Shown one piece after another: positions 2,108 to 58,998 of a DNA stretch of 64,000 nucleotides; within the stretch, counting starts at the first letter, position 1, and each line of letters begins with the position of its first letter. Below the pieces are notes generated by a model. That model was given only the letters and a program-made list of their open reading frames with translations. It did not search any database and was not told the DNA's origin. The position numbers and the translations under genes were made by a program. Origin of the DNA: an uncultured Candidatus Saccharibacteria bacterium (GTDB lineage: Bacteria > Patescibacteriota > Minisyncoccia > Phycocordibacterales > UBA9973); contig CAZADR010000003.1 in NCBI GenBank assembly GCA_964484005.1, positions 24,910-88,909 on the forward strand, in the 5' to 3' direction.

Positions 2108-2121
2108 AACTATTCCATCGT

Positions 2122-2152
2122 TTGACAAAGCTCTATATCCTTGTAATATAAA
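2122..2152 (+). promoter_or_regulatory. Sigma70-like promoter (TTGACA, 16-17 nt spacer, TAATAT) for the 2205-2642 cassette gene
   Basis: A consensus -35 TTGACA at 2122, then a 16-17 nt spacer and an A/T-rich -10. An AGGAG RBS lies 6 nt before the ATG at 2205. Confidence 0.5.
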
Positions 2153-2204
2153 CACGGGTTAGTTGTTTATATTAACCATTAATTTTCTCTAGAAAGGAGA
2201 AAAC

Positions 2205-2642
2205 ATGAAATTTGGTCTGATTGAAATGGATCGAACGATTCCTCCGACCTACCCCCTTTGGAAGAAAAGGTTGCTCCATCCTGAGCTCGAGTGTGCAGGC
2301 CCTGACGAGTACTACCTTTCGTCCGTTGGACTCTGGCTTCTTGAAGAGCAGAAGCAGAGAGAAGTCAAGGGAAACGTTGTTTTCAATTTCCTGGAAAGTG
2401 CTTCTTTGTTTAAGTCCTGCCTGAACTTGCAGGACGGACTTGCAATCCAGGGAAAGGGCATCATGCCTTTCCGGGAGCTTTTTGGTGGCATGGCTGTATT
2501 CCTCTGGGCCTCCGCCGTGGAGAGTCAGAACGAGCAGGATAGTGTCCCATACCTCTACGAGCAATGGGGTAAAGTTGAAATCGCCTGGCATTGGCTCGAT
2601 GATACCTGGGACCGCTGGCGCCCCGCGCTCATCTTCCAATAA
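2205..2642 (+). CDS. Hypothetical protein, 145 aa, Trp-rich; compositionally foreign (GC around 50%)
   Basis: Strong RBS (aaAGGAGaaaac-ATG), its own promoter and terminator, and codon usage unlike neighbouring genes. No recognisable domain. Confidence 0.6.
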   Translation: MKFGLIEMDRTIPPTYPLWKKRLLHPELECAGPDEYYLSSVGLWLLEEQKQREVKGNVVFNFLESASLFKSCLNLQDGLAIQGKGIMPFRELFGGMAVFLWASAVESQNEQDSVPYLYEQWGKVEIAWHWLDDTWDRWRPALIFQ

Positions 2643-2659
2643 TCTCAGCAGGCATCACA

Positions 2660-2708
2660 ATAGCCCCGAACGCAAAACATCGCGTTTGGGGCTATTTTAT
2701 ATTTTAGA
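2660..2708 (+). terminator. Rho-independent terminator
   Basis: About 14-bp stem (atagccccgaacgc/gcgtttggggctat), loop aaaacat, followed by ttttatatttt. Confidence 0.7.
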
Positions 2709-4064
2709 AATTTTTTGACCCTCTGGTGTGTCTTTTACTTCGTAGCCAAGAGAATTTATTTCACCTCGAAGTTCATCTGATTTTTTGAAATCTTTGTCAT
2801 TGCGAGCTTGTTCTCTTTCTGTAACTATTTTTTTTATATTTTCTGGTATTTCAATTTCTTTTATATTTTCAAAGCCAAGTCCTAACACTTTATCAAAGTC
2901 TAAAATTGTAGCCTTTTTATCTCCATCTGACATATTTTCATCTTTCATTACATCCCAAAGGAGAGCCAATGCTCGAGGGGTGTCTAAGTCGTCTTCTAGG
3001 TATTCCTTGAACTTATTTTGGTATTCCTGGTGGACTTGCCCTAGTGCACTCCCTAGGCCTAAATAAAGGCCATAAAGGCGTTTTAAGGCTGTTTCAGCAC
3101 CTTCTAATGCTTCCCAGACAAAGTTTACTCTGGTGCGGTAATTTGCCATTAAAAGCCAAAATCTATAGGCTAGGGGATTTATTCCTTTTTCTATTAAGTC
3201 TCTCAAAGTAAAAAAATTATTGAAAGATTTTGCCATCTTTTTTTGGTCCACCAAGACCCACTCATTGTGCATCCAATATTTTACAAATTGTTTACCTGTC
3301 GCTCCTTCGGATTGAGCTATTTCATTTTCGTGATGGGGGAAGATATTGTCTACACCACCAGTGTGTAGGTCTATCTGTTCTCCCAAGTTTTTCATAGACA
3401 TAGCCGAGCATTCTATATGCCAGCCGGGTCGGCCTTTACCTAGACTGGTCTCCCAGAAGACATCTCCATCTTTTTCATCCCAAGATTTCCAAAGAGCAAA
3501 ATCTTGAGCGTTGTCTTTTTCGTATTCATCTGTTTTTATTCGGCCAGAAGCATTTTCTTTTTGTTCTTCTAGTACAAGGTGAGAAAGCTCGCCATAATTT
3601 TTAAATTTTTTTATATCAAAATACACACTGCCATCGGGGCTCTTGTAAGCAAGTTCTTTTTCTAAAAGTGTATTTATAATTTTTACCATCTCATCTACAT
3701 AGTCAGTGGCTTTGGTAAATTTTGTTGGTTCTAAGATGTTTAGAGTTTTAATATCTTTGAAAAATTCTGCAGTATAAAACTCTGTAAACTCCTTTAAGCT
3801 TTTGCCTTCTTTTTGAGAGTCACGAATAGTCTTGTCATCTATGTCGGTGATATTCATGATGTGTTTTACTTTATATCCGCTGTAAGTGAGCACACGCTTT
3901 AAAATATCTGCAAAAATATATGCTCTGTAATTTCCGATATGAGGATAATTGTAAACAGTGGGCCCACAAGAATAAAAAGTTACATGTGGAGGATTTATGG
4001 GGGTAAAAGTTTCTTTTGTTCTAGTTAAGGTGTTATAGACTTGCATTTTGTTTAAAGAATTCAT
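2697..4064 (-). CDS. cysS: Cysteine--tRNA ligase
   Basis: HIGN motif (HIGNYRAY) and KMAKS (KMSKS-like). Class I aaRS architecture. The true start may be the internal Met MQVYNTL at about 4046. Confidence 0.9.
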   Translation of the reverse strand: MNSLNKMQVYNTLTRTKETFTPINPPHVTFYSCGPTVYNYPHIGNYRAYIFADILKRVLTYSGYKVKHIMNITDIDDKTIRDSQKEGKSLKEFTEFYTAEFFKDIKTLNILEPTKFTKATDYVDEMVKIINTLLEKELAYKSPDGSVYFDIKKFKNYGELSHLVLEEQKENASGRIKTDEYEKDNAQDFALWKSWDEKDGDVFWETSLGKGRPGWHIECSAMSMKNLGEQIDLHTGGVDNIFPHHENEIAQSEGATGKQFVKYWMHNEWVLVDQKKMAKSFNNFFTLRDLIEKGINPLAYRFWLLMANYRTRVNFVWEALEGAETALKRLYGLYLGLGSALGQVHQEYQNKFKEYLEDDLDTPRALALLWDVMKDENMSDGDKKATILDFDKVLGLGFENIKEIEIPENIKKIVTEREQARNDKDFKKSDELRGEINSLGYEVKDTPEGQKISKI

Positions 4065-5058
4065 TTCGGTATATTGAAATTAGGGTATAGAGCAAGCTGA
4101 CAGTGAGTGGGCCAATCAAGATACCAACAGGGCCCATAAGGGAAATACCTCCGAGTACTGAGAATAGAATAATGATAGAAGGCAGGTGTATCTTTTTGCC
4201 TACAATGAGTGGGCTTAAAAAATTATCTATCATTCCTACAGCAATTACAGACCAAATTATAAGACCGATAGAAGCAGCAGTACTGCCTGTCGCAAAAAGG
4301 AAGATTACAGCAGGGATTGAAACCAAGGCAGTTCCAATCATTGGAAGCAGAGAAGACACAGCAGCTACCACACCCCACAATGCGGGATTTGGTACATTAA
4401 AAATGGAGAGACCGACTCCCATGACTATGCCCTGTACAAGGGCGACAAACATGTATCCTTTTATTACAGCATTTACAGAAGAGGCCAATCTGGAAATAAT
4501 TCTCTCATCTTCTTTGTCTTGTAGGGGAGAGATTAAAACTATGGCTTTTTTCCATCTCGCTCCATCTTTTAAAAGATAAAAGATTATTAGAAGCATTAGT
4601 AAGAATGAAAAGAAGGCGGATACAGTGGAGCTAAAAATATTTGCGATATTCTTTGATAAGTAGGAGATAAATTCTGTGGTTCTTTGGTTTATATCAAAGT
4701 TGATAATTTCTGGTAGGAGATTATTGATTTTATTTTCAATAGAATATAGAAAAGGCTCTGCACTACCTTCGCTTACTACTGCTCTGTATACATCTTGGCT
4801 TTGATTAAAAACAATTGCCCCGATACCTAAAAGTGGTCCGCACAAGAGTAAAATAAAGAGAAGGAGTGTCACTAGGGCGGAGAGCCATTCGGGTAATTTT
4901 CTATTATTTAGCCAAGCATATACAGGATGGAGCACTATAGCAAAAGATATTCCTAAAATAAGAACAATCCAGAAAGGTTGGAAAATAAAAAAAGTAAAAA
5001 TTAAAGTAGCCAATAATAGCCCAAAGAAAAAATATTTCTCTATAATTTTTGGTTGCAT
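4033..5058 (-). CDS. AI-2E family transporter (UPF0118/PerM-like permease)
   Basis: 341 aa, 8 TM topology with the characteristic layout of this family. Confidence 0.7.
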   Translation of the reverse strand: MQPKIIEKYFFFGLLLATLIFTFFIFQPFWIVLILGISFAIVLHPVYAWLNNRKLPEWLSALVTLLLFILLLCGPLLGIGAIVFNQSQDVYRAVVSEGSAEPFLYSIENKINNLLPEIINFDINQRTTEFISYLSKNIANIFSSTVSAFFSFLLMLLIIFYLLKDGARWKKAIVLISPLQDKEDERIISRLASSVNAVIKGYMFVALVQGIVMGVGLSIFNVPNPALWGVVAAVSSLLPMIGTALVSIPAVIFLFATGSTAASIGLIIWSVIAVGMIDNFLSPLIVGKKIHLPSIIILFSVLGGISLMGPVGILIGPLTVSLLYTLISIYRNEFFKQNASL

Positions 5059-5152
5059 ATGGGCATAATTATAGCAGAATTAATGCGGGAGACCAAGTCT
5101 TTTTGGTCCTAGGGTTGCTTTTTTGAGAAATATCATATAATATAAGCCAAGT

Positions 5153-5488
5153 ATGACTAAAACGAAGAAAGATGAATTTGCAGTAATATTTACAGGCGGA
5201 AAGCAATACAAAGTCTCCGAGGGAGGCCTTGTTTCTATTGAGAAAATAAAGGGTGAATACAAAAAAGGGGACAAGTTGTCTTTTGATAAAGTTCTCTTGG
5301 TAGATGACGGCAAAGACACCACAATCGGTACACCTTATATAAAAGGAGCAAAAGTGGATGCTGAAATAGTAGAAATTGGCCGTGCTCGAAAAATATTAGT
5401 TGTAAAATACAAACAAAAATCCCGTTACCTCCGCCGAAACGGCCACCGCCAACCTTTCTTCAAAGTAAAAATAACTTCTATAAAATAA
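5153..5488 (+). CDS. rplU: 50S ribosomal protein L21
   Basis: 111 aa with typical L21 sequence (FAVIFTGGKQYKVSEG...VLLVDDG). Confidence 0.9.
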   Translation: MTKTKKDEFAVIFTGGKQYKVSEGGLVSIEKIKGEYKKGDKLSFDKVLLVDDGKDTTIGTPYIKGAKVDAEIVEIGRARKILVVKYKQKSRYLRRNGHRQPFFKVKITSIK

Positions 5489-5489
5489 A

Positions 5490-5526
5490 TTAAAAAGCCC
5501 CGCAATAAGCACGGGGCTTTTTGTTG
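5490..5526. terminator. Bidirectional rho-independent terminator between rplU and the 5551-5784 gene
   Basis: Hairpin aaagccccg-caataag-cacggggcttt with T-runs on both sides. Confidence 0.7.
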
Positions 5527-5550
5527 CGGGGCGAGATCGATGATCCGGCT

Positions 5551-5784
5551 CTATCTTGGCACGATGTTTCTTGCCCAGAGCTTGCCGTTGTACTTGCACT
5601 TGCTCGGCACGAAGAATACGTCACGGGTCGAGCAAGTTGCGTTGTAGTCGAAGCACATGTCATACAACACACTGGCCTCGTCGTCCTTGACTCGGTAGGT
5701 ATTGCCGTCGTTGGCAATGATTTCCATTACGAACTTGCTTGCGGTGAACTTGCGAAGAACCAGGTCCCCAGTTAACTGACACAT
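5551..5784 (-). CDS. Hypothetical small protein, 77 aa, 4 Cys; compositionally foreign (higher GC)
   Basis: A perfect AGGAGG RBS lies 7 nt upstream of the ATG. The promoter is consensus TTGACA/TATAAT. A terminator follows downstream. No recognisable domain. Confidence 0.6.
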   Translation of the reverse strand: MCQLTGDLVLRKFTASKFVMEIIANDGNTYRVKDDEASVLYDMCFDYNATCSTRDVFFVPSKCKYNGKLWARNIVPR

Positions 5785-5793
5785 TTAAAGACC

Positions 5794-5835
5794 CCTCCTA
5801 ATACACATTATACACCTTTAAGAATATTTTGTCAA
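5794..5835 (-). promoter_or_regulatory. Consensus sigma70 promoter (TTGACA, 16-17 nt spacer, TATAAT) plus AGGAGG RBS of the 5551-5784 gene
   Basis: On the minus strand: TTGACAaaatattctaaaggtgTATAATgtgtattAGGAGGggtctttaaATG. An 8-4-8 palindrome aaatagac-tatt-gtctattt lies just upstream at 5833-5852. Confidence 0.6.
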
Positions 5836-5840
5836 ATAGA

Positions 5841-6452
5841 CTATTGTCTATTTTTGAGAGCGTTTTTGAGAGTGTCGTTGTCTGAATATTCGAGTTCGGT
5901 GCCAGTGGAGAGGCCTTTGCCTAGAGAGGACACTTTTATATTTAATTTTTCTGCAGTGTTTGCGATTTGTTCTCGGACATAAGAATCTGTGTGGTCGCCT
6001 TGGGGACTAATAGAAAAAGCTAAGATAATCTCTTTTAAATCCGCACTCTTTTCAATCCTTTGTTTTAATTCTTCAATACGTACTCGGCTCTTGGTATTTT
6101 TCTCTACTATTGGTACTAGTCCACCCAAAATAAAATATTTTCCATGATAGACTCCGCTCTTGTTTATACTTTCTAAATCAGAATCTTTTTCTACTATCAA
6201 CAAAAGGGAAGAGTCGGTATTTGGACTGCCACAAATCTCACAAATATCTTTTTTGGTTTTACTACCGAGGAAAAATTTATAGCACTCTTTGCATTGAGAA
6301 ACTTCCTTTTTTAATTCTAAGACTAGCTTGGATAAATTGTTGGCATATTCTCCATTTCTAAAAATTAAAAAATAAACAAAACGCTTGGCTTGCCTTTCAC
6401 CAATACCAGGGAATTCTTTAAAAACTTCAGTTAATTTTTCGATAATGTCCAT
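5841..6452 (-). CDS. recR: Recombination protein RecR
   Basis: C4 zinc finger (CKECYKF...CEICGSP) followed by a Toprim domain. 203 aa. Confidence 0.9.
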   Translation of the reverse strand: MDIIEKLTEVFKEFPGIGERQAKRFVYFLIFRNGEYANNLSKLVLELKKEVSQCKECYKFFLGSKTKKDICEICGSPNTDSSLLLIVEKDSDLESINKSGVYHGKYFILGGLVPIVEKNTKSRVRIEELKQRIEKSADLKEIILAFSISPQGDHTDSYVREQIANTAEKLNIKVSSLGKGLSTGTELEYSDNDTLKNALKNRQ

Positions 6453-6459
6453 GTGTTAT

Positions 6460-7957: not shown

Positions 7958-8048
7958 GAAGCCATTCTATCACGATAGAAAAATTGTCAAAGTGATAAAG
8001 TTGGTAAAGATGTTATTAAAATGTGAACAAATATGATAATATTTAAGT

Positions 8049-9040: not shown

Positions 9041-10426
9041 ATGAAAAATCGCATTTATATAAAAGATTTAAAAGACAATGTAGGAAAAGAGGTTACTATT
9101 GCTGGATGGGTGGATGTCAGGCGTGACCAAGGCAAGATGGTCTTTTTTGATATGCGAGACATGACCGGGAAAATTCAATGCGTTACTTTGACAATTCATC
9201 CTGAAGCTTTAGAGAAAGCAAAAGAGATTCGCTCTGAATGGGTTCTCGAAGTTAAAGGTTTAGTCAATGAGCGCAAGGATAAAAATGCAGAAAAGGGTGG
9301 CGGTGTTGAGATTGAAGTTACTGATATTGTTGTCTTAAACAAAGCTGAGACTTCACCTTTTCAAATAAATGAAAGTACTGCAGGCATAAACGAGGATTTG
9401 AGAATGAAATACAAATATCTAGATTTGCGTACAGAGAGAATGCAGAAAAATATTCGTATGCGAGATAAAATAATTTCTTTTTTCCGTAAATATATGCACG
9501 ACAATGATTTTATAGAAATTGAAACTCCTATTTTGATGAAAGGTACACCCGAGGGTTCCAGAGAATATGTAGTACCTTCTAGGCTTTTTAATGGGCAGTT
9601 TTATGTCTTACCCCAATCTCCTCAGCAATTTAAGCAGCTTTGTATGGTGGCTGGATTTGAAAAATATTTTCAAGTAGCTCGTTGCATGAGAGATGAAGAT
9701 ACCAGGGGAGATAGGCAGCCAGAATTTACTCAGTTAGATTTTGAGATGTCTTTTATAACGCAAGAAGAAGTTTTGGAATATACCGAAAAAATGTTTATTG
9801 AGCTTATTAAAAATGTTTATCCTGATAAAAAAATAAGCCAAATTCCTTTTCCGAGAATATCTTATGCAGAATCAATAAAAAAATATGGTTCTGATAAACC
9901 CGATATGAGAATAAATAAAGACGACCCAAACGAGCTAGCTTTTGCTTGGATATTGGATTTCCCAATGTTTGAAAAGACTGACGATGGAGAGCTTCAAGCG
10001 GTGCACCATCCATTTTGCTCAATAAAAGAGGAAGACAAAGAAAAATTTTTAAAAGGAGAAGACTTGTTTTCTATCCGTGCCAACGCTTATGACCTCGTAT
10101 TAAATGGCTATGAACTTTCTTCTGGTAGTATTCGTATTCACGAACGAGAAATTCAAAAACAAGTTTTCAGGCTTTTGAATATTAGTGAAGAAGAACAGCA
10201 AAAGAAATTTGGACACATGCTGGAAGCATTTACTTATGGTGCTCCTCCTCATGGTGGTTTTGCTCCGGGGATAGACCGTATTGTTATGATATTGCAAAAT
10301 GAACCAAATATTAGAGAAGTGATAGCTTTTCCAAAAACTGGAGAAGGAAGAGATTTAATGATGGGCTCTCCAGCACCAATAACTGAAAAGCAATTGAAAG
10401 AACTTGGAATAAAATTAGGTAAGTAA
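9041..10426 (+). CDS. aspS: Aspartate--tRNA ligase (short form lacking the GAD insertion; probably non-discriminating)
   Basis: N-terminal OB fold. Class II motifs FYVLPQSPQQFKQ, RDEDTRGDRQPEFTQLDFEM and GGFAPGIDR. Confidence 0.75.
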   Translation: MKNRIYIKDLKDNVGKEVTIAGWVDVRRDQGKMVFFDMRDMTGKIQCVTLTIHPEALEKAKEIRSEWVLEVKGLVNERKDKNAEKGGGVEIEVTDIVVLNKAETSPFQINESTAGINEDLRMKYKYLDLRTERMQKNIRMRDKIISFFRKYMHDNDFIEIETPILMKGTPEGSREYVVPSRLFNGQFYVLPQSPQQFKQLCMVAGFEKYFQVARCMRDEDTRGDRQPEFTQLDFEMSFITQEEVLEYTEKMFIELIKNVYPDKKISQIPFPRISYAESIKKYGSDKPDMRINKDDPNELAFAWILDFPMFEKTDDGELQAVHHPFCSIKEEDKEKFLKGEDLFSIRANAYDLVLNGYELSSGSIRIHEREIQKQVFRLLNISEEEQQKKFGHMLEAFTYGAPPHGGFAPGIDRIVMILQNEPNIREVIAFPKTGEGRDLMMGSPAPITEKQLKELGIKLGK

Positions 10427-10767
10427 TGAATTACACACTAAAGGGTGTCGTGATAAGGGGAGAAGGATACGGTAGAAAAATTGGTTTTCCTACTGTGAAT
10501 TTAGATGTTAAAAATCAAGAGCTTCCAAAAGATGGAGTGTATGCTGGAGTTGCCACATTAGAAGACAAGAAATATAAGACAGGCATTGTAATCGGTGCAA
10601 AAAATATAATTGGTAAAAAAGTGGAAGCGCACCTGCTCGGTTATAGTGGGGATGCATATGGTAAAGAAGTGACACTCGAGGTAGGAAAATTCTTGCGTGA
10701 ATATAAAAATTTCGACACAGAAATAGAATTAATTACTCAAATAAAAGAGGACATAAAAAGAATCTAG
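10426..10767 (+). CDS. Riboflavin kinase domain protein
   Basis: Motif GRKIGFPTVNL and GY...AHLL, typical of the RibF C-terminal / FMN kinase domain. 113 aa. Confidence 0.75.
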   Translation: MNYTLKGVVIRGEGYGRKIGFPTVNLDVKNQELPKDGVYAGVATLEDKKYKTGIVIGAKNIIGKKVEAHLLGYSGDAYGKEVTLEVGKFLREYKNFDTEIELITQIKEDIKRI

Positions 10768-11757: not shown

Positions 11758-12381
11758 TTACCCTAAGGCTTCAAGAAAATTTTTCTCAAAACCCTTTTCA
11801 AAATTACGTGCGAAGTAGTTTTGTCTAACAGCTGGGTCGGCAATTAGTGTGGAGAGGGAATTGATAGGGATTTTCTTCCCGTTTATATCCTTTACCACTT
11901 TACAAGAAAAGATTTTTTTAAAGCTTGGTAATTTTTCTTTTCTTGTGACAGGAACAGCTGCATACCAGATGGCACGCGGGAATTTCCAGTTGTTGCGCTC
12001 TCGCACAAGTGCAACAGTTGTTCCGGAACTGATTACGTCGTCAACTACGACAACGTTTTCAATTTCGGAGTTTATACCCCATCCCATTTGGTGAACCAAT
12101 ACAACCGGTTCACTTCCGGGAGACCAAATTCTTTTTGCAAAAACTTCTTGCGAAAGAAAGTGACCATTGAAACCCAAAGATTTCACTCTCTGGGCACTCT
12201 CTCCAGGGTAGATGAAAAGAGTAGATTCTTGTTTTAGTTCCAGTTGCCTAAAGACGGATTCCTGGAGTTCGGCGATTATAGCCTTTTCATCCAAGAACTG
12301 GACCTGTTGAATCCTCGTTTCCATAAACAAGGAGGTTAAGCGGTGAAATGACCTTCCTAGATCGTTAATAATAATTACCAT
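11758..12381 (-). CDS. Phosphoribosyltransferase-family protein (type I PRTase fold)
   Basis: PRPP-binding motif VVVVDDVISSGTT. AGGAGGAG RBS directly upstream of the ATG. GC is higher than in neighbouring genes. Confidence 0.7.
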   Translation of the reverse strand: MVIIINDLGRSFHRLTSLFMETRIQQVQFLDEKAIIAELQESVFRQLELKQESTLFIYPGESAQRVKSLGFNGHFLSQEVFAKRIWSPGSEPVVLVHQMGWGINSEIENVVVVDDVISSGTTVALVRERNNWKFPRAIWYAAVPVTRKEKLPSFKKIFSCKVVKDINGKKIPINSLSTLIADPAVRQNYFARNFEKGFEKNFLEALG

Positions 12382-12475
12382 TTTCTCCTCCTTATGAAGA
12401 AACCCTCTCTTAGAGAGGGGATAAGCGTCCTTTTAAAAAAAGAAAAACTAGCCTCTCTCTATGAAAAAGAGGTTC
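12382..12475 (-). promoter_or_regulatory. Attenuator-like leader with mutually exclusive hairpins upstream of the PRTase gene
   Basis: Minus-strand RNA: cctcttTTTCATagagagagg + U-run (the LOG-gene terminator), then cccctctc-taa-gagaggg + uuucuu about 10 nt before the AGGAGG RBS. The 3' arm of hairpin 1 (tagagagagg) can instead pair with the 5' arm of hairpin 2 (cctctctcta). Confidence 0.35.
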
Positions 12476-12511: not shown

Positions 12512-13057
12512 TCATTTTATTGTTGTTTGTTTGATAGCTTTTCTGACTGCGTCTTTTGGGTCTTTGGCCAAAATAATTTTTATTGTTTTTCTTGGGTCAA
12601 GATATTTATCATTTAAAATTTTCCTTGCCCAGCCAAAAGTTTTTTCAATGACAACAATAGGTACTTTGTTTCTATAACTAACACAGATTTCTTGCAGAGT
12701 TCCAGCTCCACCACCGATAACAATAACTGCATCGCACATCAACGGGATAAATACCTCATCAAAACCTGCGATTTTAGAACCCGTGATTATTTCTATGTCT
12801 GTCCATTTATTTGAGGTATTTCTTGGACCAGTAATAACTCCAATAGTAATACCATCATTTTCTTTTGCACCACGAGCCGCATTTTCCATCACTCCTCCCT
12901 TTCCGCCTGTAACAACAATTGCTCCAGCTTTTGCTAATAACGATCCAACTTCCTTGGCAATGATTAATTCTTTTTTTGTCGGTCCACCAATTGGATATTC
13001 TTCAATCCCTGCCCAACCCAATACTCCAATTTGTAATTTTTTTGATATTTTTTTCAT
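12512..13057 (-). CDS. LOG family / TIGR00725 Rossmann-fold nucleotide-binding protein
   Basis: Motifs VVTGGKGGVMENAARGA and VIGGGAGTLQE. 181 aa. Confidence 0.8.
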   Translation of the reverse strand: MKKISKKLQIGVLGWAGIEEYPIGGPTKKELIIAKEVGSLLAKAGAIVVTGGKGGVMENAARGAKENDGITIGVITGPRNTSNKWTDIEIITGSKIAGFDEVFIPLMCDAVIVIGGGAGTLQEICVSYRNKVPIVVIEKTFGWARKILNDKYLDPRKTIKIILAKDPKDAVRKAIKQTTIK

Positions 13058-13106: not shown

Positions 13107-13415
13107 TTAATGATTTTCTTTTAATCTTTTTAATATAAGTCTATATCCTCCGATTGGACCTTTGAGCCATTTTGATATTCGGGCTATAGTTGTGGAAGAA
13201 AGGCCAGTATTTTCAATAATGGTGTTGTATTGCACATCTTTGGATAGTAGGCGAGCTGCTTCTAGTCTATTGGAAAATTCTTGTATTTCGCCCTGAGTCA
13301 TTAAATCACGAAGAAAAAACTCAGCTTCTTCGGTATTCTTTAAAGCCAAAACAGCTTCTAATAATTGTTGGTTTTTTTTACTATTCCAATTAACTTCTTT
13401 TTCTATTTCTTTCAT
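13107..13415 (-). CDS. YerC/YecD-family (TrpR-like) DNA-binding protein
   Basis: 102 aa. C-terminal HTH (NTGLSSTTIARISKWL) and overall Trp-repressor-like fold. Confidence 0.65.
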   Translation of the reverse strand: MKEIEKEVNWNSKKNQQLLEAVLALKNTEEAEFFLRDLMTQGEIQEFSNRLEAARLLSKDVQYNTIIENTGLSSTTIARISKWLKGPIGGYRLILKRLKENH

Positions 13416-34675: not shown

Positions 34676-34709
34676 CAAAAAAGAAAAAGCAGACCTATGC
34701 CAGATCTGC
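34676..34709 (-). terminator. Rho-independent terminator of the 34695-34955 gene (its hairpin contains the stop codon)
   Basis: gcagatctggcataggtctgc hairpin followed by tttttcttttttt on the minus strand. Confidence 0.65.
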
Positions 34710-34955
34710 TTTGTTTTGAAAAACTTGAATGTCAGCTTCATTGATTTCCCAGTGTATGGTGCATCGATCCTCCTCATTGGGATCACAGCAGTCACACTCC
34801 CAGTCATCTTCCCACGCGAAAAATTTTCCGTTGGGGGTTTTGATGACATGTATGTCATGATTCCTGCCCTTGAGGATGCACTCAGCCAAGTAGCCTTCAC
34901 TCGGGTAATAGCCAGTCATCTGCCATTGCCTTGGAGCAATCTTTCCACAAGTCAT
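34695..34955 (-). CDS. Hypothetical Cys-rich small protein, 86 aa (CDCC...C cluster); compositionally foreign
   Basis: AGGAGG RBS 6 nt upstream of the ATG (aaAGGAGGctcttt-ATG). Its own promoter and terminator. GC is well above neighbouring genes. Confidence 0.6.
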   Translation of the reverse strand: MTCGKIAPRQWQMTGYYPSEGYLAECILKGRNHDIHVIKTPNGKFFAWEDDWECDCCDPNEEDRCTIHWEINEADIQVFQNKADLA

Positions 34956-35067
34956 AAAGAGCCTCCTTTCTGAAATTATCCTAGCTTATGACACAACAAG
35001 AAGCAAATAAGAATCTGATGGATTTTTACTCAGATTTATGTTATAAATTATAATGTTTTTAAGAAAT

Positions 35068-35138
35068 TGGGAGATCGTCTAACGGTAGGACAGCGGCCTT
35101 TGAAGCCGTGAATCTTGGTTCGATTCCAAGTCTCCCAG
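35068..35138 (+). tRNA. tRNA-Gln (anticodon UUG)
   Basis: Cloverleaf: acceptor tgggaga/tctccca (U1-A72, as in bacterial tRNA-Gln), anticodon loop cTTTGaa, T-loop ttcgatt. No CCA encoded. Confidence 0.85.
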
Positions 35139-35160
35139 CAAATTCTGGTATAATAAAAAC

Positions 35161-35784
35161 ATGCCAAAAGAAAATTGGGATACCCAACACATAAAATATG
35201 CAGAAGCTGAATGGATAGATAAACCTAGTATATTTGCGCAAAATGCAATTAAATTTTTTCCAGATACTGGGAATATTGTTGACTTGGGTTGTGGTCAAGG
35301 ACAGGACTCAAGATTTTTTGCTCAACATGGCTACAATGTTGTAGGGGCAGATTTTTCAAGTGAAGCAATTAAAATTGCTAAGGAAAAAAGTAAAGATTTA
35401 GATTTTAAAGTTTTAGACATTTCAAAACCTCTTCCTTTCGAAGATACATCTTTTGATGTTGTGTATTCCCATCTTGCTGTCCACTATTTTAATAAAGAAA
35501 CAACAGAATTAATTTTCAAAGAATTATCTCGTATCCTAAAAAAGGATGGTGTCCTAGCAATTTTTGTTAATTCAGTGAATGATCCAGAGTATGGAACTGG
35601 CACACAAATTGAAGAAGACTATTTTGCTATTGGAAACATGCAGAAACGTTATTTTAGCCAAGAATCCCTAAAGCATTATGTTGAGGGATTTGAACCTTTG
35701 CTATTAGACGAGAAAGGTGAAACATATAAAGACAGGGCAGTTGGTGTTTCAAACTTAGTCCAGTTCATAGGAAGAAAGATTTAA
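35161..35784 (+). CDS. Class I SAM-dependent methyltransferase
   Basis: Motif I VDLGCGQGQD. Methyltransf_11-like fold. 207 aa. Confidence 0.8.
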   Translation: MPKENWDTQHIKYAEAEWIDKPSIFAQNAIKFFPDTGNIVDLGCGQGQDSRFFAQHGYNVVGADFSSEAIKIAKEKSKDLDFKVLDISKPLPFEDTSFDVVYSHLAVHYFNKETTELIFKELSRILKKDGVLAIFVNSVNDPEYGTGTQIEEDYFAIGNMQKRYFSQESLKHYVEGFEPLLLDEKGETYKDRAVGVSNLVQFIGRKI

Positions 35785-36041: not shown

Positions 36042-37082
36042 TTATTTATCTTCTGAAATTATTTTTACAAGTGCAAGTTCTAACGGCAATTCGGTGATAA
36101 AGGCATTGTCCATATTTTGATATGCTTCTAGAAGTATAGATAGTGCCGGTGAGCGCAGCATACCGTCTTTATCATCTTTTACGAGCTTTTTTAGAAATTC
36201 TAAATCACCTTCTGAAAGGTCTCCGGTCATTTCTTCTTGCAGTTTTGGAGCATAGCGCAGGATTATCGCCATACGAAATTTTTGCAGGATGAGCTTGAAG
36301 TATAATTGCATATCTAAATTTGCTTCGGAAGCAATTCTTACCGCTCCTATTCCCTTTTCTATATTCTTTTCGGCGATGGCGGAAATAAAATCATTTACTA
36401 AAACTGTTTTTGGTGCGCCAGTAATCTTTTCTATATCTTCTCTTGATATTTTCTTTCCTTTTGAGAAGTTTAAAACTTTCTGAAGCTCACCTAAGGCATC
36501 TCGGAATGAACCATCTGCTAATATTGCAAGGAGCTCGGCGCTTCCGGCATCCATTTCAAATCCTTCCTTTTTGGCGACATCGAGGAGCATCTTTTTGCAG
36601 ACAGTGTCAGACGCTTTTTTAAATGTAAAAACCTGACAGCGAGAAATAATTGTATCCGGGACTTTGTGAAATTCTGTTGTAGCTAAAATAAAGATGACAT
36701 GCTTTGGGGGTTCTTCCAGAGTTTTCAAAAGCGCACCCCAAGCATCTTTGGAGAGCATGTGCACCTCGTCTATGATGTAGACTTTGTATTTTGAATCAAA
36801 AGGTAATACTCGCACTCCATCTCGTAATTCTTTGATATCTTCAATTCCTCTGTTTGATGCAGCGTCTATTTCATATAAATCATTTACAGATACTCCGATG
36901 CTCGTTGCAAAGATTCTGGCCACAGAAGTCTTACCTGTGCCCCTAGAGCCAACAAATAGATAAGCATGGGAGACTTTGTTTGTGTCCACAGAGCTCTCCA
37001 AAACTTTTGTAATATGGTCTTGTCCGAGGACTTCTTTAAAGCTTTTTGGCCTGTATTTACGATATAAAGCTAAATCATGCAT
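36042..37082 (-). CDS. dnaX: DNA polymerase III subunit gamma/tau (short form)
   Basis: Walker A GSRGTGKTS. AAA+ clamp-loader motifs. 346 aa. Confidence 0.88.
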   Translation of the reverse strand: MHDLALYRKYRPKSFKEVLGQDHITKVLESSVDTNKVSHAYLFVGSRGTGKTSVARIFATSIGVSVNDLYEIDAASNRGIEDIKELRDGVRVLPFDSKYKVYIIDEVHMLSKDAWGALLKTLEEPPKHVIFILATTEFHKVPDTIISRCQVFTFKKASDTVCKKMLLDVAKKEGFEMDAGSAELLAILADGSFRDALGELQKVLNFSKGKKISREDIEKITGAPKTVLVNDFISAIAEKNIEKGIGAVRIASEANLDMQLYFKLILQKFRMAIILRYAPKLQEEMTGDLSEGDLEFLKKLVKDDKDGMLRSPALSILLEAYQNMDNAFITELPLELALVKIISEDK

Positions 37083-46014: not shown

Positions 46015-46098
46015 GAATTGATTCTAGCACAAAGGATTTATTTTTAACAATTGATTTTTAAGCGTATTTTGTGTAAAATGTGTGAATTGATGTGGAAT

Positions 46099-46182
46099 GC
46101 CCAGGTGGCGGAATTGGTAGACGCGATAGACTCAAAATCTATTGATGGCAACATCATGAGAGTTCGATTCTCTCCCTGGGCA
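46099..46182 (+). tRNA. tRNA-Leu (anticodon CAA)
   Basis: Acceptor gcccagg/cctgggc, anticodon loop ctCAAaa, long variable arm (gatggcaacatc), T-loop ttcgatt. A promoter TTGATT-17-TAAAAT lies upstream. Confidence 0.85.
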
Positions 46183-46277
46183 CAGAGTAAGCAAACTAAT
46201 TTGCTTACGTGGAGGAATCGAAAGGATTTTCGTTGCTGAACATCGTGAAGCCGAAAATCACCTGGATATGTAATATC

Positions 46278-46297
46278 CGATTCTCTCCCTGGGCACA
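46278..46297 (+). repeat. 20-nt direct repeat of the tRNA-Leu 3' end (cgattctctccctgggcaca)
   Basis: Identical to 46165-46184, which is the 3' T-arm and acceptor part of tRNA-Leu. Lies 9 nt before the murA ATG. Confidence 0.7.
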
Positions 46298-46306
46298 CGA
46301 TATAAT

Positions 46307-47638
46307 ATGAAAAAAGAAAAAATACAAATAAGCCACTCAATTGATTTTCAAGTAAACGGAGGTAAGAAATTAAGTGGAAGTATCAAAACAAATTTTTCAA
46401 AGAACGGTTCTGTCGGCTTGCTTTGTGCTTCTCTTTTAAATAGTGGTACGACTACACTTCATGGTATTGCTCGTATTGAAGAAGTAAATAGAGTAATTGA
46501 AATACTTGAAAGTATCGGAGTATCGGTAAAATGGACAGATCGTAATACTGTAAAGATTACTCCTCCTAAAAAATTTGACTTAAAAAATATAAATGTTGAA
46601 TCAGCTATAAAGACTCGTTCCATAGTAATGCTTATGGGTCCCCTTATTCACAAATTTTCTTCTTTTTCTCTTCCTCATGCTCAAGGATGCAATCTCGGCA
46701 AGCGAACTATCGCCGCTCATACCTTTGCCCTCAATGAACTTGGTGTAAAGATAAAAACAAATTCAGCAGACTATGCGATTAGCCATAAAAAACTGAAGGG
46801 GGCAGAAATCGTGATGTATGAATCCGGAGACACTGCTTGTGAAAATGTTTTGACAGCTTCGGCATTAGTAGATGGAATGACCACTATCTCTTTTGCTAGT
46901 GCAAACTACATGGTTCAGGAAATTTGTTTCTTTCTGGAAGCCTTGGGGGTAAAAATAGATGGTATTGGTACTTCTACCTTAATCGTTCATGGACTCAAAG
47001 AAATAAATAAAAATATAGAGTATTGGAACAGTGAAGATCCTATTGAATCTATGATGTTTATCTCTGCTTGTATCGTCACAGACTCTAGACTCACCATCAC
47101 CAGATGCCCGATAGATTTTCTTTCTCTTGAATTGGAAAAATTAAAGAGAATGAATTTGAAATATAAAATATTAAAAAGATATTATTCAAACAATGGACGA
47201 ACCAAGCTCGCAGATATTGAAATCTTACCAAGCAAACTAAAAGCTTTAGTAGATAAAATACATTCAAACCCTTACCCAGGTATAAATATAGACAACTTGC
47301 CTTTTTTTGTGCCTATCGCCATCCGCGCTAAGGGTCAGACCATGATACATGACTGGGTTTATGAAAATCGGGCTATTTATTTTACTGAATTAAATCGACT
47401 TGGAGCCAATATATCTTTGGCTGATCCACACCGAGTATATATTACAGGTGGAACTTCTCTTTATGCTGCGCAAGTAGTCTGCCCTCCTGCCCTACGCCCA
47501 TCGATGGTAATACTCATTTCCATGTTAGCCGCAAAGGGCACTTCTATCCTTCGAAATGTATATATGATAAATCGAGGTTATGAAGAAATAGCGGAACGCC
47601 TAAACTCTATCGGTGCAGATATTAAAATAATTCATTAA
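46307..47638 (+). CDS. murA: UDP-N-acetylglucosamine 1-carboxyvinyltransferase
   Basis: EPSP-synthase fold. N-terminus aligns with MurA (KIQISHS...GSVGLLCASLL). 443 aa. Confidence 0.9.
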   Translation: MKKEKIQISHSIDFQVNGGKKLSGSIKTNFSKNGSVGLLCASLLNSGTTTLHGIARIEEVNRVIEILESIGVSVKWTDRNTVKITPPKKFDLKNINVESAIKTRSIVMLMGPLIHKFSSFSLPHAQGCNLGKRTIAAHTFALNELGVKIKTNSADYAISHKKLKGAEIVMYESGDTACENVLTASALVDGMTTISFASANYMVQEICFFLEALGVKIDGIGTSTLIVHGLKEINKNIEYWNSEDPIESMMFISACIVTDSRLTITRCPIDFLSLELEKLKRMNLKYKILKRYYSNNGRTKLADIEILPSKLKALVDKIHSNPYPGINIDNLPFFVPIAIRAKGQTMIHDWVYENRAIYFTELNRLGANISLADPHRVYITGGTSLYAAQVVCPPALRPSMVILISMLAAKGTSILRNVYMINRGYEEIAERLNSIGADIKIIH

Positions 47639-52132: not shown

Positions 52133-52137
52133 ATTAC

Positions 52138-53268: not shown

Positions 53269-53274
53269 GCGTTT

Positions 53275-53826: not shown

Positions 53827-53847
53827 ATATTTCTAGTATAACAGAAA

Positions 53848-54576: not shown

Positions 54577-54578
54577 TA

Positions 54579-55592: not shown

Positions 55593-55660
55593 AAAGCTAA
55601 TATAACATATATTTATGTTAGAATGAAGTTGTAAAAAGGTTATAAAAACATTCAAAAAAC

Positions 55661-57604
55661 ATGAAAATAGTATCGGTAATACCATTTAAAAAAGGAATTC
55701 CAAAGGGAGATTTGACCTATTTTACCAGCTTAGACATACATCTGGGTAATATTGTGTCTGTTCCCGTAAGAAGCAAGGAAACTCTTGCCTTAGTTGTTTC
55801 TATTGAAGAGCTTAAGGAAACAAAGAGCAACATCAAAGGAATGAATTTTAAATTAAGAAAAGTAACCGAAGACAAAGGTGACTCAGTTTTTTTGAAAGAA
55901 TTAATGTATACAATTTTTGATATAAATAAATTTTTTGCACAACATCAAAATAATTCCATCTCTTCTTTAATTCCCAATATATTTATAGAAAAATACGACA
56001 AAATATTAAAAATAAAAAATAAAGAAGAAAAAATAATTGATGACAAGAGAAATCTTCGAGCTGAAAAATTCCTTTTTCAATATGGAATCAAGGAGCGTAT
56101 ATCTGTATATAAAACCCTTGTTCGTGAATCATTTGCAAGAGGAAAGTCTGTTTTTATGGTTTTACCTACTGAGTTTGATATAGAAATATTTTACAAAGAA
56201 CTCTCGAGGGGTATCGAGCAGTTCACCTTTTCTGTACATAGTGGAATTACCCCAAAGAAAAACTTAACGGCTTATGAAGAAATCATTACTTCATCTCACC
56301 CTGTCCTTATAATAGGGACTCCCCCATTTTTGGCTATTCCCAGGAGAGATATCGGAACTATCATCTTGGAACACGAAAATTCTAATGCATACAAGATGAT
56401 AAGACGACCATATTTTGACCTAAGGGTATTTGTGGAAACTTATGCTTCTAAAATAAAAGCTAGATTGATAATGGCAGATGAGATACTTCGATTTGAAACA
56501 ATTGGCAGAATGGAAAGAGATAATTTTTTACCCCTACACCCTCTTTCTTTTCGAATAGATTTTGATGGAAAAATAGAAGTTGTAGAGGCTGCATATGGAG
56601 AGAAGGAAAGAAAAGAAAAAGAATTTAGAATATTTAGTGACGAAACAATTGAAGAAATAACGCAAGTTTTAAAAAGTAGAAAAAATGTTTTTATTTTTTC
56701 TTTGCGAAAAGGTCTTGCCACGATGACCGTCTGTAGGGATTGCGGAGAAAGTGTAAATTGCGAAGAATGCCAAGCTCCTTTGGTTTTATATTTATCACAC
56801 AAGGGAGATAAGAGGATGTTTGTATGCAACCGATGTGAGACAGACAGAGGTGGTGAAAAATTGTGTGATAAGTGTGGTAGTTGGAATTTGATGCCACTTG
56901 GTATTGGCACTGATACGGTATACGAAGAAATAAATAAGTTTTTCCCTAAAGAGAAGATTTTAAAACTCGATAAAGAGTCTGCTAAAACAGCATTGGGAGC
57001 CAAAAAAATCGTAAAAGATTTTAATGAAAACAAAGGTTCAATATTAATAGGAACTGAAATGGCTTTTTTCTATCTAAAAAATAAAATACCTCTGTCTTTA
57101 ATTTCTTCATTTGATTCTCTTTGGAGTATACCAAACTTTAAAATGAGTGAAAAAATAATTCAAATTGTACTTTCTGCGATAGGCAATACTACAGAAAAAC
57201 TTATTATACAGACCAAAAATGAAAAAGATGGGGCAATTTTAGCTATAAAATCTGGAAATCTGCTGTCTTTTGTTCGTGAGGAATTAGAAATAAGAAAAAA
57301 ACTTGGCTATCCACCATTTAAACGATTTATAAAAATTGTATTCCAGGGAGACAAAACAGAAACCCTAAAAGCTAAAAAAATATTAGAGGAAATGTTTGAA
57401 GAATATTCTCCTTTAATTTACAACGGATTTGTTCCTCGTCTTAAAGATAAATATGTAACAAATGCATTAATAAAGATTGATCCATTAAACTGGTCATTGC
57501 CAGAATTTTCTCTAAACTCTTCTTTTGATGAAAATCTTTTTGTAAAAATTTCTTCACTTCCTAGTTCTTTTGAAGTATTGGTCGACCCAGAAGATTTGCT
57601 CTAA
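55661..57604 (+). CDS. Primosomal protein N' (PriA)-like, helicase motifs degenerate
   Basis: N-terminal 3' DNA-binding-domain-like region and a PriA Cys-rich zinc region (CRDCGESVNCEECQ...CNRCE...CDKCGS). No intact Walker A GxGKT. Confidence 0.55.
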   Translation: MKIVSVIPFKKGIPKGDLTYFTSLDIHLGNIVSVPVRSKETLALVVSIEELKETKSNIKGMNFKLRKVTEDKGDSVFLKELMYTIFDINKFFAQHQNNSISSLIPNIFIEKYDKILKIKNKEEKIIDDKRNLRAEKFLFQYGIKERISVYKTLVRESFARGKSVFMVLPTEFDIEIFYKELSRGIEQFTFSVHSGITPKKNLTAYEEIITSSHPVLIIGTPPFLAIPRRDIGTIILEHENSNAYKMIRRPYFDLRVFVETYASKIKARLIMADEILRFETIGRMERDNFLPLHPLSFRIDFDGKIEVVEAAYGEKERKEKEFRIFSDETIEEITQVLKSRKNVFIFSLRKGLATMTVCRDCGESVNCEECQAPLVLYLSHKGDKRMFVCNRCETDRGGEKLCDKCGSWNLMPLGIGTDTVYEEINKFFPKEKILKLDKESAKTALGAKKIVKDFNENKGSILIGTEMAFFYLKNKIPLSLISSFDSLWSIPNFKMSEKIIQIVLSAIGNTTEKLIIQTKNEKDGAILAIKSGNLLSFVREELEIRKKLGYPPFKRFIKIVFQGDKTETLKAKKILEEMFEEYSPLIYNGFVPRLKDKYVTNALIKIDPLNWSLPEFSLNSSFDENLFVKISSLPSSFEVLVDPEDLL

Positions 57605-57607
57605 AAA

Positions 57608-58282
57608 TTAGGCAACGATAACAGTAAACTCCCCTTTTTGTTTTACGGGATTTTTTATTAAATAGTCCAATATTTCTTTTGGTGTACCAGTTTTAAATTC
57701 TTCATAAATTTTAGTAAGTTCTCGAGCAATACAAACTTTTTTTTCTGGACAAAATTTATCTAAGGATTCAAGTGTTTTTAAAATTCTATGTGGAGATTCA
57801 TAAAAAACCATGGTGCGTTTCGCATTACTAATTTCTTTAAATAAAGTCTCTCTACCTTTTTTATGAGGCAAAAAACCCAGAAAAGTAAATTCATGGGTTG
57901 GTAAACCTGAAGCAGAGAGTGCTGTGATTACAGCCGTAACACCTGGAATAGGAACAACTTGAACAGTGTCACCAAGCCTTTCTTTAATTTGAGAAACGAG
58001 TAGTGCTCCGGGATCAGAGATTCCAGGAGTTCCTGCGTCAGAAACCAATGCTAAATCTTTTCCCTCCTCTAATAAAAGAAAAATTTTGTCCATTTTTGCG
58101 AGCTTGCTTTGAGCATGATAGCTCATGGTTGTATTGTTTATGTTGTATTTATCTAAGATTTTCTTTGTCTCTCGTGTGTCTTCACACAATATCAAATCAA
58201 CACTTTTCAATGTTTCAATTGCTCGGAGAGTAATGTCTCCCATATTTCCTATTGGTGTCGCCACTACATAAAATTTAGACAT
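57608..58282 (-). CDS. rsmI: 16S rRNA (cytidine1402-2'-O)-methyltransferase
   Basis: Tetrapyrrole-methylase fold (YVVATPIGNMGDITLRAIETL, LCEDTR). Likely start MSKFYV at 58282; the ORF extends to 58342. Confidence 0.85.
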   Translation of the reverse strand: MSKFYVVATPIGNMGDITLRAIETLKSVDLILCEDTRETKKILDKYNINNTTMSYHAQSKLAKMDKIFLLLEEGKDLALVSDAGTPGISDPGALLVSQIKERLGDTVQVVPIPGVTAVITALSASGLPTHEFTFLGFLPHKKGRETLFKEISNAKRTMVFYESPHRILKTLESLDKFCPEKKVCIARELTKIYEEFKTGTPKEILDYLIKNPVKQKGEFTVIVA

Positions 58283-58310
58283 ATGTTTTGAGTATAGCAA
58301 AATATAACTA

Positions 58311-58350
58311 TAAAAGAAAAAGCCTTGGGCACTGTGGCCCAAGGCTTAAA
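58311..58350 (-). terminator. Rho-independent terminator of the 58370-58903 gene
   Basis: aagccttgggc-caca-gtgcccaaggctt hairpin followed by tttttctttt on the minus strand. Confidence 0.7.
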
Positions 58351-58369
58351 TCATTCGATGTTAAAAAAA

Positions 58370-58903
58370 CTAAACAACCAACTTGAAGACAAAGATATCT
58401 TCACCATCCCACACATACCAAGGTGGGGCAAAGAGTGCATCGAGAGATAGAGTTCCGTCTTCTTTGCACTCTACTACAAACACATCACCGACATCTACTG
58501 TCTCCTTGACTGGAATTGGCTCCATCGCAATTCGGGGGAATTTGTTTTTTGGGTTTATCTCCATGTACTGGTCCAAATATTGGTCTCGCAAAGCAGGACC
58601 AACTTCTGCCGGACATAGATCTCCGACCCTTTTGATGGCATCGAAGATTTCTGTGGTGGTGGCAATCATTTTGCCGGTAAGGTCCACCACGCTTGCTCGG
58701 CAAAGAAAAATCTTCTGCTCCTTTTGGGCCAACGCAAAAGCGGGCTGGCACAAAAAAGCTAAAACCTCTTTCTTAATTTTGAACTTTTCCATTGAAAGAA
58801 GTAGGATTTCAAGTCTCTTGTAGAGACCAATCGTTACTGATCTCCATAGAGAAAACCGTACTTCATGAGTCTGAACTTCCTGTTCAACTGCATGCAAGCT
58901 CAT
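58370..58903 (-). CDS. Hypothetical protein, 177 aa; compositionally foreign (GC around 50%)
   Basis: AAGGAG RBS 5 nt upstream of the ATG at 58903 (MSLHAVEQ...). Its own promoter/operator and terminator. No recognisable domain. The ORF track extends to 58948 without an RBS. Confidence 0.55.
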   Translation of the reverse strand: MSLHAVEQEVQTHEVRFSLWRSVTIGLYKRLEILLLSMEKFKIKKEVLAFLCQPAFALAQKEQKIFLCRASVVDLTGKMIATTTEIFDAIKRVGDLCPAEVGPALRDQYLDQYMEINPKNKFPRIAMEPIPVKETVDVGDVFVVECKEDGTLSLDALFAPPWYVWDGEDIFVFKLVV

Positions 58904-58944
58904 TCTTTCTCCTTTTGTTGTTGTTTTGGTGCAAATATCTAAAA

Positions 58945-58976
58945 ACACAATAACACATATTGTGTAATTGTGTCAA
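58945..58976 (-). promoter_or_regulatory. Promoter -35 (TTGACA) overlapping an operator-like inverted repeat acacaat/attgtgt (x2)
   Basis: acacaat at 58945-58951. attgtgt at 58959-58965 and 58967-58973. tgtcaa (the -35 on the minus strand) at 58971-58976. Confidence 0.4.
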
Positions 58977-58998
58977 TCTAGAATGTATTATACTATTT

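Follow-up and report, generated by a model that had tools for sequence, protein, structure and literature searches.

Results

The DNA studied here is a 64,000-nucleotide (nt) stretch of contig CAZADR010000003.1 (assembly GCA_964484005.1, positions 24,910 to 88,909), deposited under an uncultured Candidatus Saccharibacteria bacterium. It is hereafter called the window, and its positions are counted from its first letter. Five of its genes differ from all the others in composition and in the signals around them, and we refer to them as cassettes C1 (2205-2642, plus strand), C2 (5551-5784, minus strand), C3 (34695-34955, minus strand), C4 (58370-58903, minus strand), and C5 (11758-12381, minus strand). 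We consider it probable that the five are natural, lineage-specific accessory genes, that C1 and C4 derive from target genes of diversity-generating retroelements (DGRs), and that the common signature reflects a gene pool of the Candidate Phyla Radiation (CPR) and not a shared function. C1 and C4 themselves are most likely stand-alone, N-terminally shortened, and fixed derivatives of DGR variable proteins. A preliminary description of the window had grouped the same genes by their regulatory architecture and had proposed several origins for them, among which DGR descent of C1 and C4 did not figure.

Five genes carry a signature that is missing from the rest of the window

The window was represented by 72 non-overlapping open reading frames (ORFs), and the five cassette genes were compared with the other 67, here called native genes. 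Each ORF was scored for GC content, GC content at third codon positions (GC3), codon adaptation index (CAI), and the strength of base pairing between the anti-Shine-Dalgarno (anti-SD) sequence and the 20 nt ahead of the gene. Anti-SD duplexes of -8.9 kcal/mol or lower were observed in C1 to C5 only, while all 67 native genes had values of -6.3 kcal/mol or higher, which bears out the earlier remark that native genes such as mraY and ftsW have essentially no SD sites. GC3 was 0.61, 0.73, 0.51, 0.45, and 0.41 for C1 to C5, respectively, against a native mean of 0.284 (standard deviation, 0.039). The corresponding z-scores (8.4, 11.3, 5.8, 4.3, and 3.1) were the five highest of the gene set, and the five lowest CAI values were also those of C1 to C5. 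The strong SD sites, elevated GC, and non-host codon usage that had been attributed to the group were therefore found for every member. The highest "native" GC3 value (0.398) came from a 98-amino-acid (aa) ORF on the minus strand (46044-46340) that overlaps a tRNA-Leu gene (46099-46183, plus strand) and is almost certainly spurious. When the window was scanned exhaustively for an SD site followed by a start codon and an ORF of at least 25 aa, no intergenic case beyond C1 to C5 was found, and all further matches fell within genes. The original list is thus complete for the window.

The promoters were less uniform than had been described. The window contains a single 12/12 match to TTGACA-17-TATAAT, which belongs to C2, and C1 and C4 each scored 10/12, C4 with a TG extension. 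A near-consensus promoter was thus confirmed for these three genes but not for C3, which has a GATAAT -10 hexamer and a poor -35, nor for C5, upstream of which no recognizable promoter was found. The dedicated terminators fared better, with the hairpins of C1, C2, C3, and C4 scoring at the top or among the top few of their 20-kb segments. Two details of the gene coordinates were revised: C2 to C5 lie on the minus strand, so that the positions by which they had been listed are their stop ends, and C4 starts at ATG 58903, not at GTG 58948. All five genes are monocistronic. An Rfam scan detected three tRNAs only, with no structured RNA in the cassette leaders, and the cassettes were found to have no flanking or common boundary repeats, no att-like sites at their edges, and no repeat copy anywhere in the window.

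Native genes showed another kind of start. A TATAAT-like hexamer ends 3 to 14 nt (mode, 6) before the start codon in 26 of the 67 native genes, as at 35161, 36042-37082, 43557, and 18212, compared to 8% at random positions, and this arrangement was seen in none of the five cassettes. Together with the lack of SD sites, these TATAAT-proximal starts suggest that leaderless transcripts are the default for the native genes of this genome.

C1 and C4 belong to families of DGR target proteins

C1 encodes 145 aa (2205..2642, plus strand; GC 0.52). It is preceded by a promoter-like site, TTGACA-16-TAATAT (2122..2149), and by a ~55-nt leader that carries the SD site AAGGAG (2194-2199), and it is followed by an intrinsic terminator (2659..2696) consisting of a 15-pair stem (8 GC) and a T run. 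On the minus strand, C4 encodes 177 aa (58370..58903) and is flanked by a promoter-like TTGACA-18-TATTGT with its TG extension (58947..58976, read from 58976 to 58947), an AAGGAG SD site (58914 to 58909), and a terminator hairpin of 11 pairs, 7 of them GC (58320..58347, read from 58347 to 58320). We found 37 relatives of C1 and 57 of C4, all of them unannotated and without a Pfam domain. The named relatives were almost all from metagenome-assembled genomes of Nomurabacteria, Patescibacteria, Colwellbacteria, or "Saccharibacteria," the sole exception being a 2.7-kb contig labeled Gammaproteobacteria. Some C4-family relatives were located on IMG/VR contigs that are themselves rich in GC, and their composition is native there; viral and phage sequence searches returned no relatives of C1. 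Searches with C1 to C4 against Pfam, PHROGs, PADLOC, and NCBIfam gave no match better than E = 0.07. Nothing was found either by Pfam searches with every member of the C1- and C4-family alignments or by PDB sequence profile searches, and a Foldseek comparison of the C1 model with PDB gave nothing significant.

The link to DGRs came from seven loci of relatives (designated here by L numbers), namely, L010, L026, L032, and L033 for the C1 family and L014, L015, and L044 for the C4 family. C1 is 44 to 55% identical to the family members in its four loci, C4 is 34 to 41% identical to those of L014 and L015, and L044 holds a further such relative. In all seven, the 3' ~130 nt of the target gene are repeated ~300 to 550 nt downstream with 81 to 86% identity, and beyond the repeat lies a gene for a reverse transcriptase (RT). 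In L010 and L014, most mismatches between the copies lie at adenines of the downstream copy (22 of 23 and 18 of 21, respectively). A downstream repeat with adenine-specific mismatches next to an RT gene marks a DGR, with the downstream copy as template repeat (TR) and the 3' end of the target as variable repeat (VR). One of the loci also contains an Avd-like ORF, whose match to Avd is below threshold.

The encoded proteins fit this assignment. Around the variable sites, a framework is kept in each family (xWxWLDxxWxSxxPALRF for C1 and VFxVxxxxxGLWLxAxxxxPxxxWxGxxRFVF for C4), and at the fixed C-terminal positions marked x the residues are N, D, Y, H, S, G, R, or C, as expected from mutagenesis of AAC codons. 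By alignment with the DGR-active homologs, the VR-equivalent of C1 would span residues ~105 to 145 (2517..2639, plus strand), ending in VPYLYEQWGKVEIAWHWLDDTWDRWRPALIFQ, and that of C4, by homology to its DGR-active relatives, residues ~131 to 177 (58373..58513, minus strand). The DGR-linked members of both families have a common N-terminal module of ~38 to 45 aa, MKYxxLDLGTIEAxxNKLGGxEGxxRFLxxEL, which is seen in P0015, P0054, and others and is missing from C1 and C4 of the window. We also considered whether the two families are homologous and rejected this, as the alignment is limited to the N-terminal ~38 aa (hhalign probability, 89%), a part that neither C1 nor C4 of the window has.

Large serine recombinase genes were observed 1 to 2 kb beyond the RT gene in two of the loci (L010 9100-10830 and L014 10828-12105), which hints that these CPR DGRs are perhaps carried on integrative elements.

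C1 and C4 appear to be fixed

We looked for a TR with a degenerate, adenine-tolerant pattern that accepts, at every position, either the VR base or an A. In a control on six loci, this search recovered the TR of all six. Applied to the window together with L001 and L019 (~70 kb of genome), it found no TR for any of C1 to C5. A tblastn search of the window with three CPR DGR RTs detected no DGR-type RT (best E, 0.09 to 0.5). The VR-equivalents were also not hypervariable. Within the C1 subfamily this segment is ~70% identical, compared to 73% overall, and in the C4 subfamily (the four closest relatives) its conservation exceeds that of the remaining protein. The VR-equivalents of C1 and C4 further contain W, Q, E, and K codons, which are beyond the reach of adenine mutagenesis of AAC. 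In a sister species (described below), the C1 and C4 copies were the same across different metagenomes apart from one single nucleotide polymorphism (SNP). Given that ~70 kb held neither TR nor RT and that hypervariability was lacking, we read C1 and C4 as fixed, orphaned derivatives.

Such copies seem to be common in the family. C1-family genes were found in 14 species-representative (GTDB) genomes, and a TR and RT lay within 6 kb in 3 of the 14, indicating that a copy without a nearby retroelement is the commonest state.

The cassettes are natural and differ in their persistence among relatives

Eight independent contigs from ENA/Logan, assembled from several sequencing runs, were 100% identical to the window, and 100%-identical independent contigs spanned the junctions of C1, C2, C4, and C5. 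The exact C1 to C5 proteins are on record in public assemblies (NCBI, ENA, and Logan). Ribosomal protein L21 clusters at 90% identity with Candidatus Nomurabacteria and Paceibacterota records, which places the window in a genome of the Patescibacteria (CPR). The organism is, on this sequence evidence, a Candidatus Nomurabacteria member, an ultra-small groundwater-type bacterium.

The related assemblies, whose inspection had been recommended, included a sister species in JGI metagenome 3300034080 (loci L007, L024, and L040), and this species has an ortholog of each of C1 and C4, placed in the corresponding slot. The C1 ortholog (L007 10953-11456) lies in the same agmatinase-cysS slot and has kept the promoter and leader (L007 10860-10950), and the C4 ortholog (L024 6544-7056) lies in the same slot between atpC and a TP_methylase gene. 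The cassette proteins have diverged far more than their neighbors: aa identity between window and sister species was 53% for C1 (nonsynonymous divergence [dN], 0.41) and 60% for C4 (dN, 0.34), with synonymous sites saturated, versus 96 to 98% for flanking proteins (dN about 0.02 to 0.03; synonymous divergence [dS], 0.7 to 0.9). Despite the saturated synonymous change, GC3 is unaltered in the sister orthologs, and their SD sites are still strong. Between the sister samples L007 and L009, only two SNPs occurred in 5.3 kb, both within the C1 cassette. One (L007 10866) changes the -35 hexamer (TTCGAC versus TTTGAC), and the other (L007 11327) is an A-to-C change in the VR-equivalent.

Fast protein evolution was also seen outside the cassettes. 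A plus-strand gene of native composition (667-1257, 196 aa) is 55% identical to its sister-species ortholog (dN, 0.39), so that rapid evolution is not confined to the cassettes. Just upstream of the window, genes for VirB4/TrwB-like ATPases (DUF87 and TrwB_AAD_bind; L001 216-1691 and L007 4834-8310) precede dnaJ and the agmatinase gene and are kept in relatives.

Other slots have turned over. In the sister species, the rplU-recR slot (L040 1183-3042) has no C2. Four other ORFs are found there: a Y1 transposase gene of the IS200/IS605 type (GC 0.27), an SD-led gene encoding 113 aa, and two more, one of which is SD-led and encodes 65 aa. The three-gene block consisting of C5, a SLOG-domain gene, and a TrpR-like gene is absent from the sister species, which in turn has a 52-aa GC-rich, SD-led ORF between trpS and aspS (L040 6292-6450) where the window has none. 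Among more distant relatives, C1 was missing from L021 and from L022/L023, and C2 from L022/L023. This patchy presence indicates that the cassettes are lineage-specific, with turnover that differs from slot to slot, and agrees with the earlier suggestion that they are additions to the lineage.

The GC offset belongs to the target gene and recurs in other CPR genomes

Across the 14 species with C1-family genes, these genes had a GC content of 0.44 to 0.64, compared to 0.31 to 0.51 for their surroundings. In the seven DGR loci, GC was 0.48 to 0.60 for the non-VR part of the target, 0.61 to 0.72 for the VR, and 0.50 to 0.60 for the TR, versus 0.28 to 0.48 for the RT gene and 0.29 to 0.52 for the flanks. 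The whole target and the TR thus lie 10 to 28 GC points above the RT gene ~1 kb away and above the flanks in 7 of 7 loci, and this split within single loci assigns the GC offset to the target gene and not to the retroelement.

GC-rich genes with strong SD sites recurred in related CPR loci, surrounded by AT-rich, SD-less, TATAAT-proximal genes. In L012, from another CPR genome, strongly SD-led genes with a GC content of 0.57 to 0.61 are located at 234-461, 1523-2340, and 9098-10504, and the SD-led genes of this locus include a nucleoside 2-deoxyribosyltransferase, a peptidase M20, and small ORFs. Within the window, hhalign comparisons showed that the C1 to C5 proteins are mutually unrelated.

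C2, C3, and C5

C2 is an ORFan of 77 aa (5551..5784, minus strand). Its promoter is located at 5807..5835 (read from 5835 to 5807), its SD site, AGGAGGGG, at 5799 to 5792, and its terminator, a bidirectional hairpin of 13 pairs common to the convergent rplU gene, at 5492..5522 (read from 5522 to 5492). Gene callers mostly place an antisense ORF at this locus, but the perfect promoter, SD site, and terminator all favor the gene on the minus strand. No credible relative was found among 1.84 billion representative proteins, and DNA-level searches of JGI metagenomes, IMG/VR, and phage genomes returned none. A resemblance to the C4 family in hhalign had raised the possibility that C2 is a truncated C4-like VR module, but a hidden Markov model of the C4-family C terminus ranked C2 225th of 5,001 sequences (shuffled ones included), and the idea was dropped.

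C3 encodes a Cys/His-rich protein of 86 aa (34695..34955, minus strand), with the SD site AAGGAGG at 34968 to 34962, the -10 hexamer GATAAT at 34980 to 34975, and a terminator hairpin of 12 pairs at 34686..34712 (read from 34712 to 34686). It adjoins a tRNA-Gln gene (35068-35139). The family has four members, and the three relatives come from 0.1-μm-filtered groundwater assemblies; one of these is compositionally native (~0.5 GC for the stretch and 0.55 GC for its flanks). Neither phage genomes nor IMG/VR contained a match. Residues C3, C26, H36, C54, C56, C57, and C65 are invariant, which makes metal binding a reasonable guess for the predicted protein. The structure model was of moderate confidence and gave weak fold matches.

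C5 encodes 207 aa (11758..12381, minus strand) and has the SD site AAGGAGGAG at 12393 to 12385 and, after the stop codon, a hairpin followed by a T run (11753 to 11721). Direct reading of the protein revealed a phosphoribosyl pyrophosphate (PRPP)-loop motif, VVVVDDVISSGTT. Matches to phosphoribosyltransferases (PRTases) were sub-threshold (Pfam Pribosyltran, 16.5 bits with a cut-off of 26.3; NCBIfam, E about 0.02 to 0.04), and hypoxanthine-guanine PRTases in PDB were matched weakly (E about 0.05). We regard C5 as a putative, divergent type I PRTase-like protein, all of its family matches being below curated thresholds. Directly upstream lie genes of native composition for a SLOG cluster4 protein (12512-13057; Pfam E = 1e-34) and, in the same island, a Trp-repressor-like protein (13107-13415). 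A relationship of C5 to the PRTase-like gene beside the L015 DGR was rejected (BLASTP E = 0.4). Type I PRTases paired with SLOG-domain proteins are known from comparative-genomic surveys as nucleotide-centered conflict or signaling systems, and the block of C5, SLOG, and TrpR-like genes could be such a module. It resembles these pairs in its PRPP loop, its weak PRTase matches, and the SLOG cluster4 neighbor, and differs from them in that no C5 family match reaches a curated threshold. As far as sequence comparison tells, C2, C3, and C5 are acquisitions unrelated to one another and to C1 or C4.

Discussion

We propose that the cassettes are autonomous one-gene units that would have settled in intergenic slots, each with an SD-bearing leader and its own terminator, with C1, C2, and C4 additionally having a good promoter match, and all five keeping GC-richer codon usage. 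The signature they share would be that of a GC-richer, SD-led gene pool circulating among CPR genomes and mobile elements. Elsewhere, the C1 and C4 families would serve as variable ligand-binding proteins diversified by DGRs; in the lineage of the window, the two genes would have been handed down in their slots from a time before the sister species split off, with fast evolution over their whole length but no further hypermutation. By inference, C1 and C4 would then most probably be binders whose specificity is fixed. DGR variable proteins with a C-type lectin fold include Mtd of a Bordetella phage, TvpA of Treponema, AvpA of archaea, and TaqVP of Thermus.

Several observations weigh against parts of this interpretation. 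The TR search covered ~70 kb of a genome that is likely several hundred kb long, and a distant TR and RT acting in trans may be conceivable; moreover, the samples of the window population are all clonal and hence uninformative on microdiversity of the VR. High GC3 persists in the C1 and C4 orthologs although their synonymous sites are saturated, and target and RT genes contrast in GC inside single DGR loci, and neither fits what one would expect of a simple recent transfer without amelioration so far. The main live rival to fixed C1 and C4 genes is remote DGR activity, in which a TR and RT elsewhere in the genome would still be diversifying one or both of them in trans. C1 and C4 are homologous to proven DGR targets, remote targets are known (PMC8144416), and 11 of the 14 GTDB C1-family genes lack a TR or RT within 6 kb, so that remote or orphan copies form the commonest state. 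We nevertheless consider it quite unlikely, as a search validated on six control loci found no TR and the window has no RT, VR-equivalent positions contain W, Q, E, and K codons, close relatives are not hypervariable there, the sister copies from different metagenomes are alike but for one SNP, and the N-terminal module of active members is missing. As to the compositional signature, the GC-rich, SD-led state could be selected and intrinsic to the families, through SD-dependent translational control or retrohoming, instead of being the trace of a recent transfer. The offset separates target and TR from a host-like RT 1 kb away in all seven DGR loci, holds over hosts whose surrounding GC ranges from 0.31 to 0.51, and has outlasted the saturation of synonymous sites. 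The same signature is nonetheless borne by unrelated genes, namely, the peptidase M20 and nucleoside deoxyribosyltransferase genes of L012 as well as C2, C3, and C5, which a general pool of foreign genes explains better, and C3 and C4 relatives are compositionally native in GC-rich contigs. Family-intrinsic selection therefore seems unlikely to us.

The origins put forward in the preliminary description were less compatible with the data. That the cassettes are parts of one dispersed multicomponent system (toxin/immunity, defense, or anti-defense) was suggested by their common regulatory architecture and by the small size of proteins without assigned function, and C5, which weakly matches a PRTase defense model, does adjoin a SLOG-domain gene. 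The proteins are, however, mutually unrelated and dispersed as single, monocistronic genes, C1 to C4 have no PADLOC or PHROGs match, the sister species keeps C1 and C4 but not C2 and C5, and the families of C1 and C4 are not partners, each being a target, in place of the other, of one kind of retroelement. A common origin as one system is thus very improbable. A donor outside the CPR, such as the host of an episymbiont, would account for the higher GC and the SD sites, and some C4-family relatives sit on GC-rich IMG/VR contigs whose host is unassigned. The C1 and C4 families are essentially confined to Patescibacteria, with the single 2.7-kb Gammaproteobacteria-labeled contig as exception among the named records, and the C3 homologs come from 0.1-μm-filtered groundwater assemblies, all of which makes such a donor highly improbable. 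Finally, the textbook order of promoter, SD site, and terminator had raised the thought of synthetic insertions or a chimeric assembly. With eight independent, 100%-identical assemblies over the junctions, diverged orthologs in the same slots of another species, and the exact proteins in NCBI, ENA, and Logan, the chance of this is negligible, and we consider that proposal refuted.

The reading of C1 and C4 as derived from CPR DGRs agrees with published surveys and departs from them in two respects. Roux et al. (2021; PMC8144416) described CPR-restricted, cell-encoded DGRs (DGR clade 2) whose targets are largely unclassifiable, and Wu et al. (2018; PMC5758913) described a "CPR set" of DGRs with unclassified VR classes. 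The loci of our seven relatives come from the same phylum, have the same target-(avd)-TR-RT layout, and encode targets without known domains, as both papers report. The window itself, in contrast, has homologs of the target gene only, and these are dispersed and apparently fixed. Wu et al. further noted GC-rich flanks of TR and VR and, where a whole DGR had atypical GC, took this as a sign of transfer (PMC5758913), whereas here the target and the TR are GC-rich and the RT gene is not. In a limited literature search, we found no description of fixed, RT-less homologs kept in synteny or of the GC split between target and RT.

The cassettes also share properties with genomic islets and other acquired genes, being outliers in GC3 and codon usage, absent from distant relatives, and placed in intergenic slots; C3 lies beside a tRNA gene, and the C2 slot holds a Y1 transposase gene in the sister species. 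Unlike islets, they are single-gene units without an integrase, flanking repeats, or a common boundary sequence, and for C1 and C4, neither the position nor the GC offset was lost when the two species separated.

A further proposal, which is possible but doubtful, is that in CPR genomes of the Nomurabacteria type, DGR targets over their whole length and their TRs form a distinct, long-lived GC-rich, SD-led class in otherwise AT-rich, leaderless genomes, in which the DGR RT gene has the composition of the host. If this were true, with selection or biased repair or recombination as its upkeep, it would point to an overlooked requirement in retrohoming or in SD-dependent control of expression, and C1, C4, and other orphaned copies would be fossils of that class. 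Public data would allow a direct test of the contrast in GC between target and RT within DGR loci.

To our knowledge, CPR bacteria carry many DGRs, and the roles of the target proteins are almost wholly unstudied. The present analysis defines two unannotated families of DGR targets without a Pfam entry or a solved relative, and in species-representative genomes, the majority of C1-family members lie more than 6 kb from any retroelement found. It also provides a validated adenine-tolerant pattern search that can be used for finding template repeats, and GC3 combined with an SD site, set against an SD-less, leaderless background, offers a practical marker of the accessory gene pool. For the biology of these bacteria, the fact that C1 and C4 were retained in their slots across a species split suggests that hypervariable binders can be "frozen" and kept.

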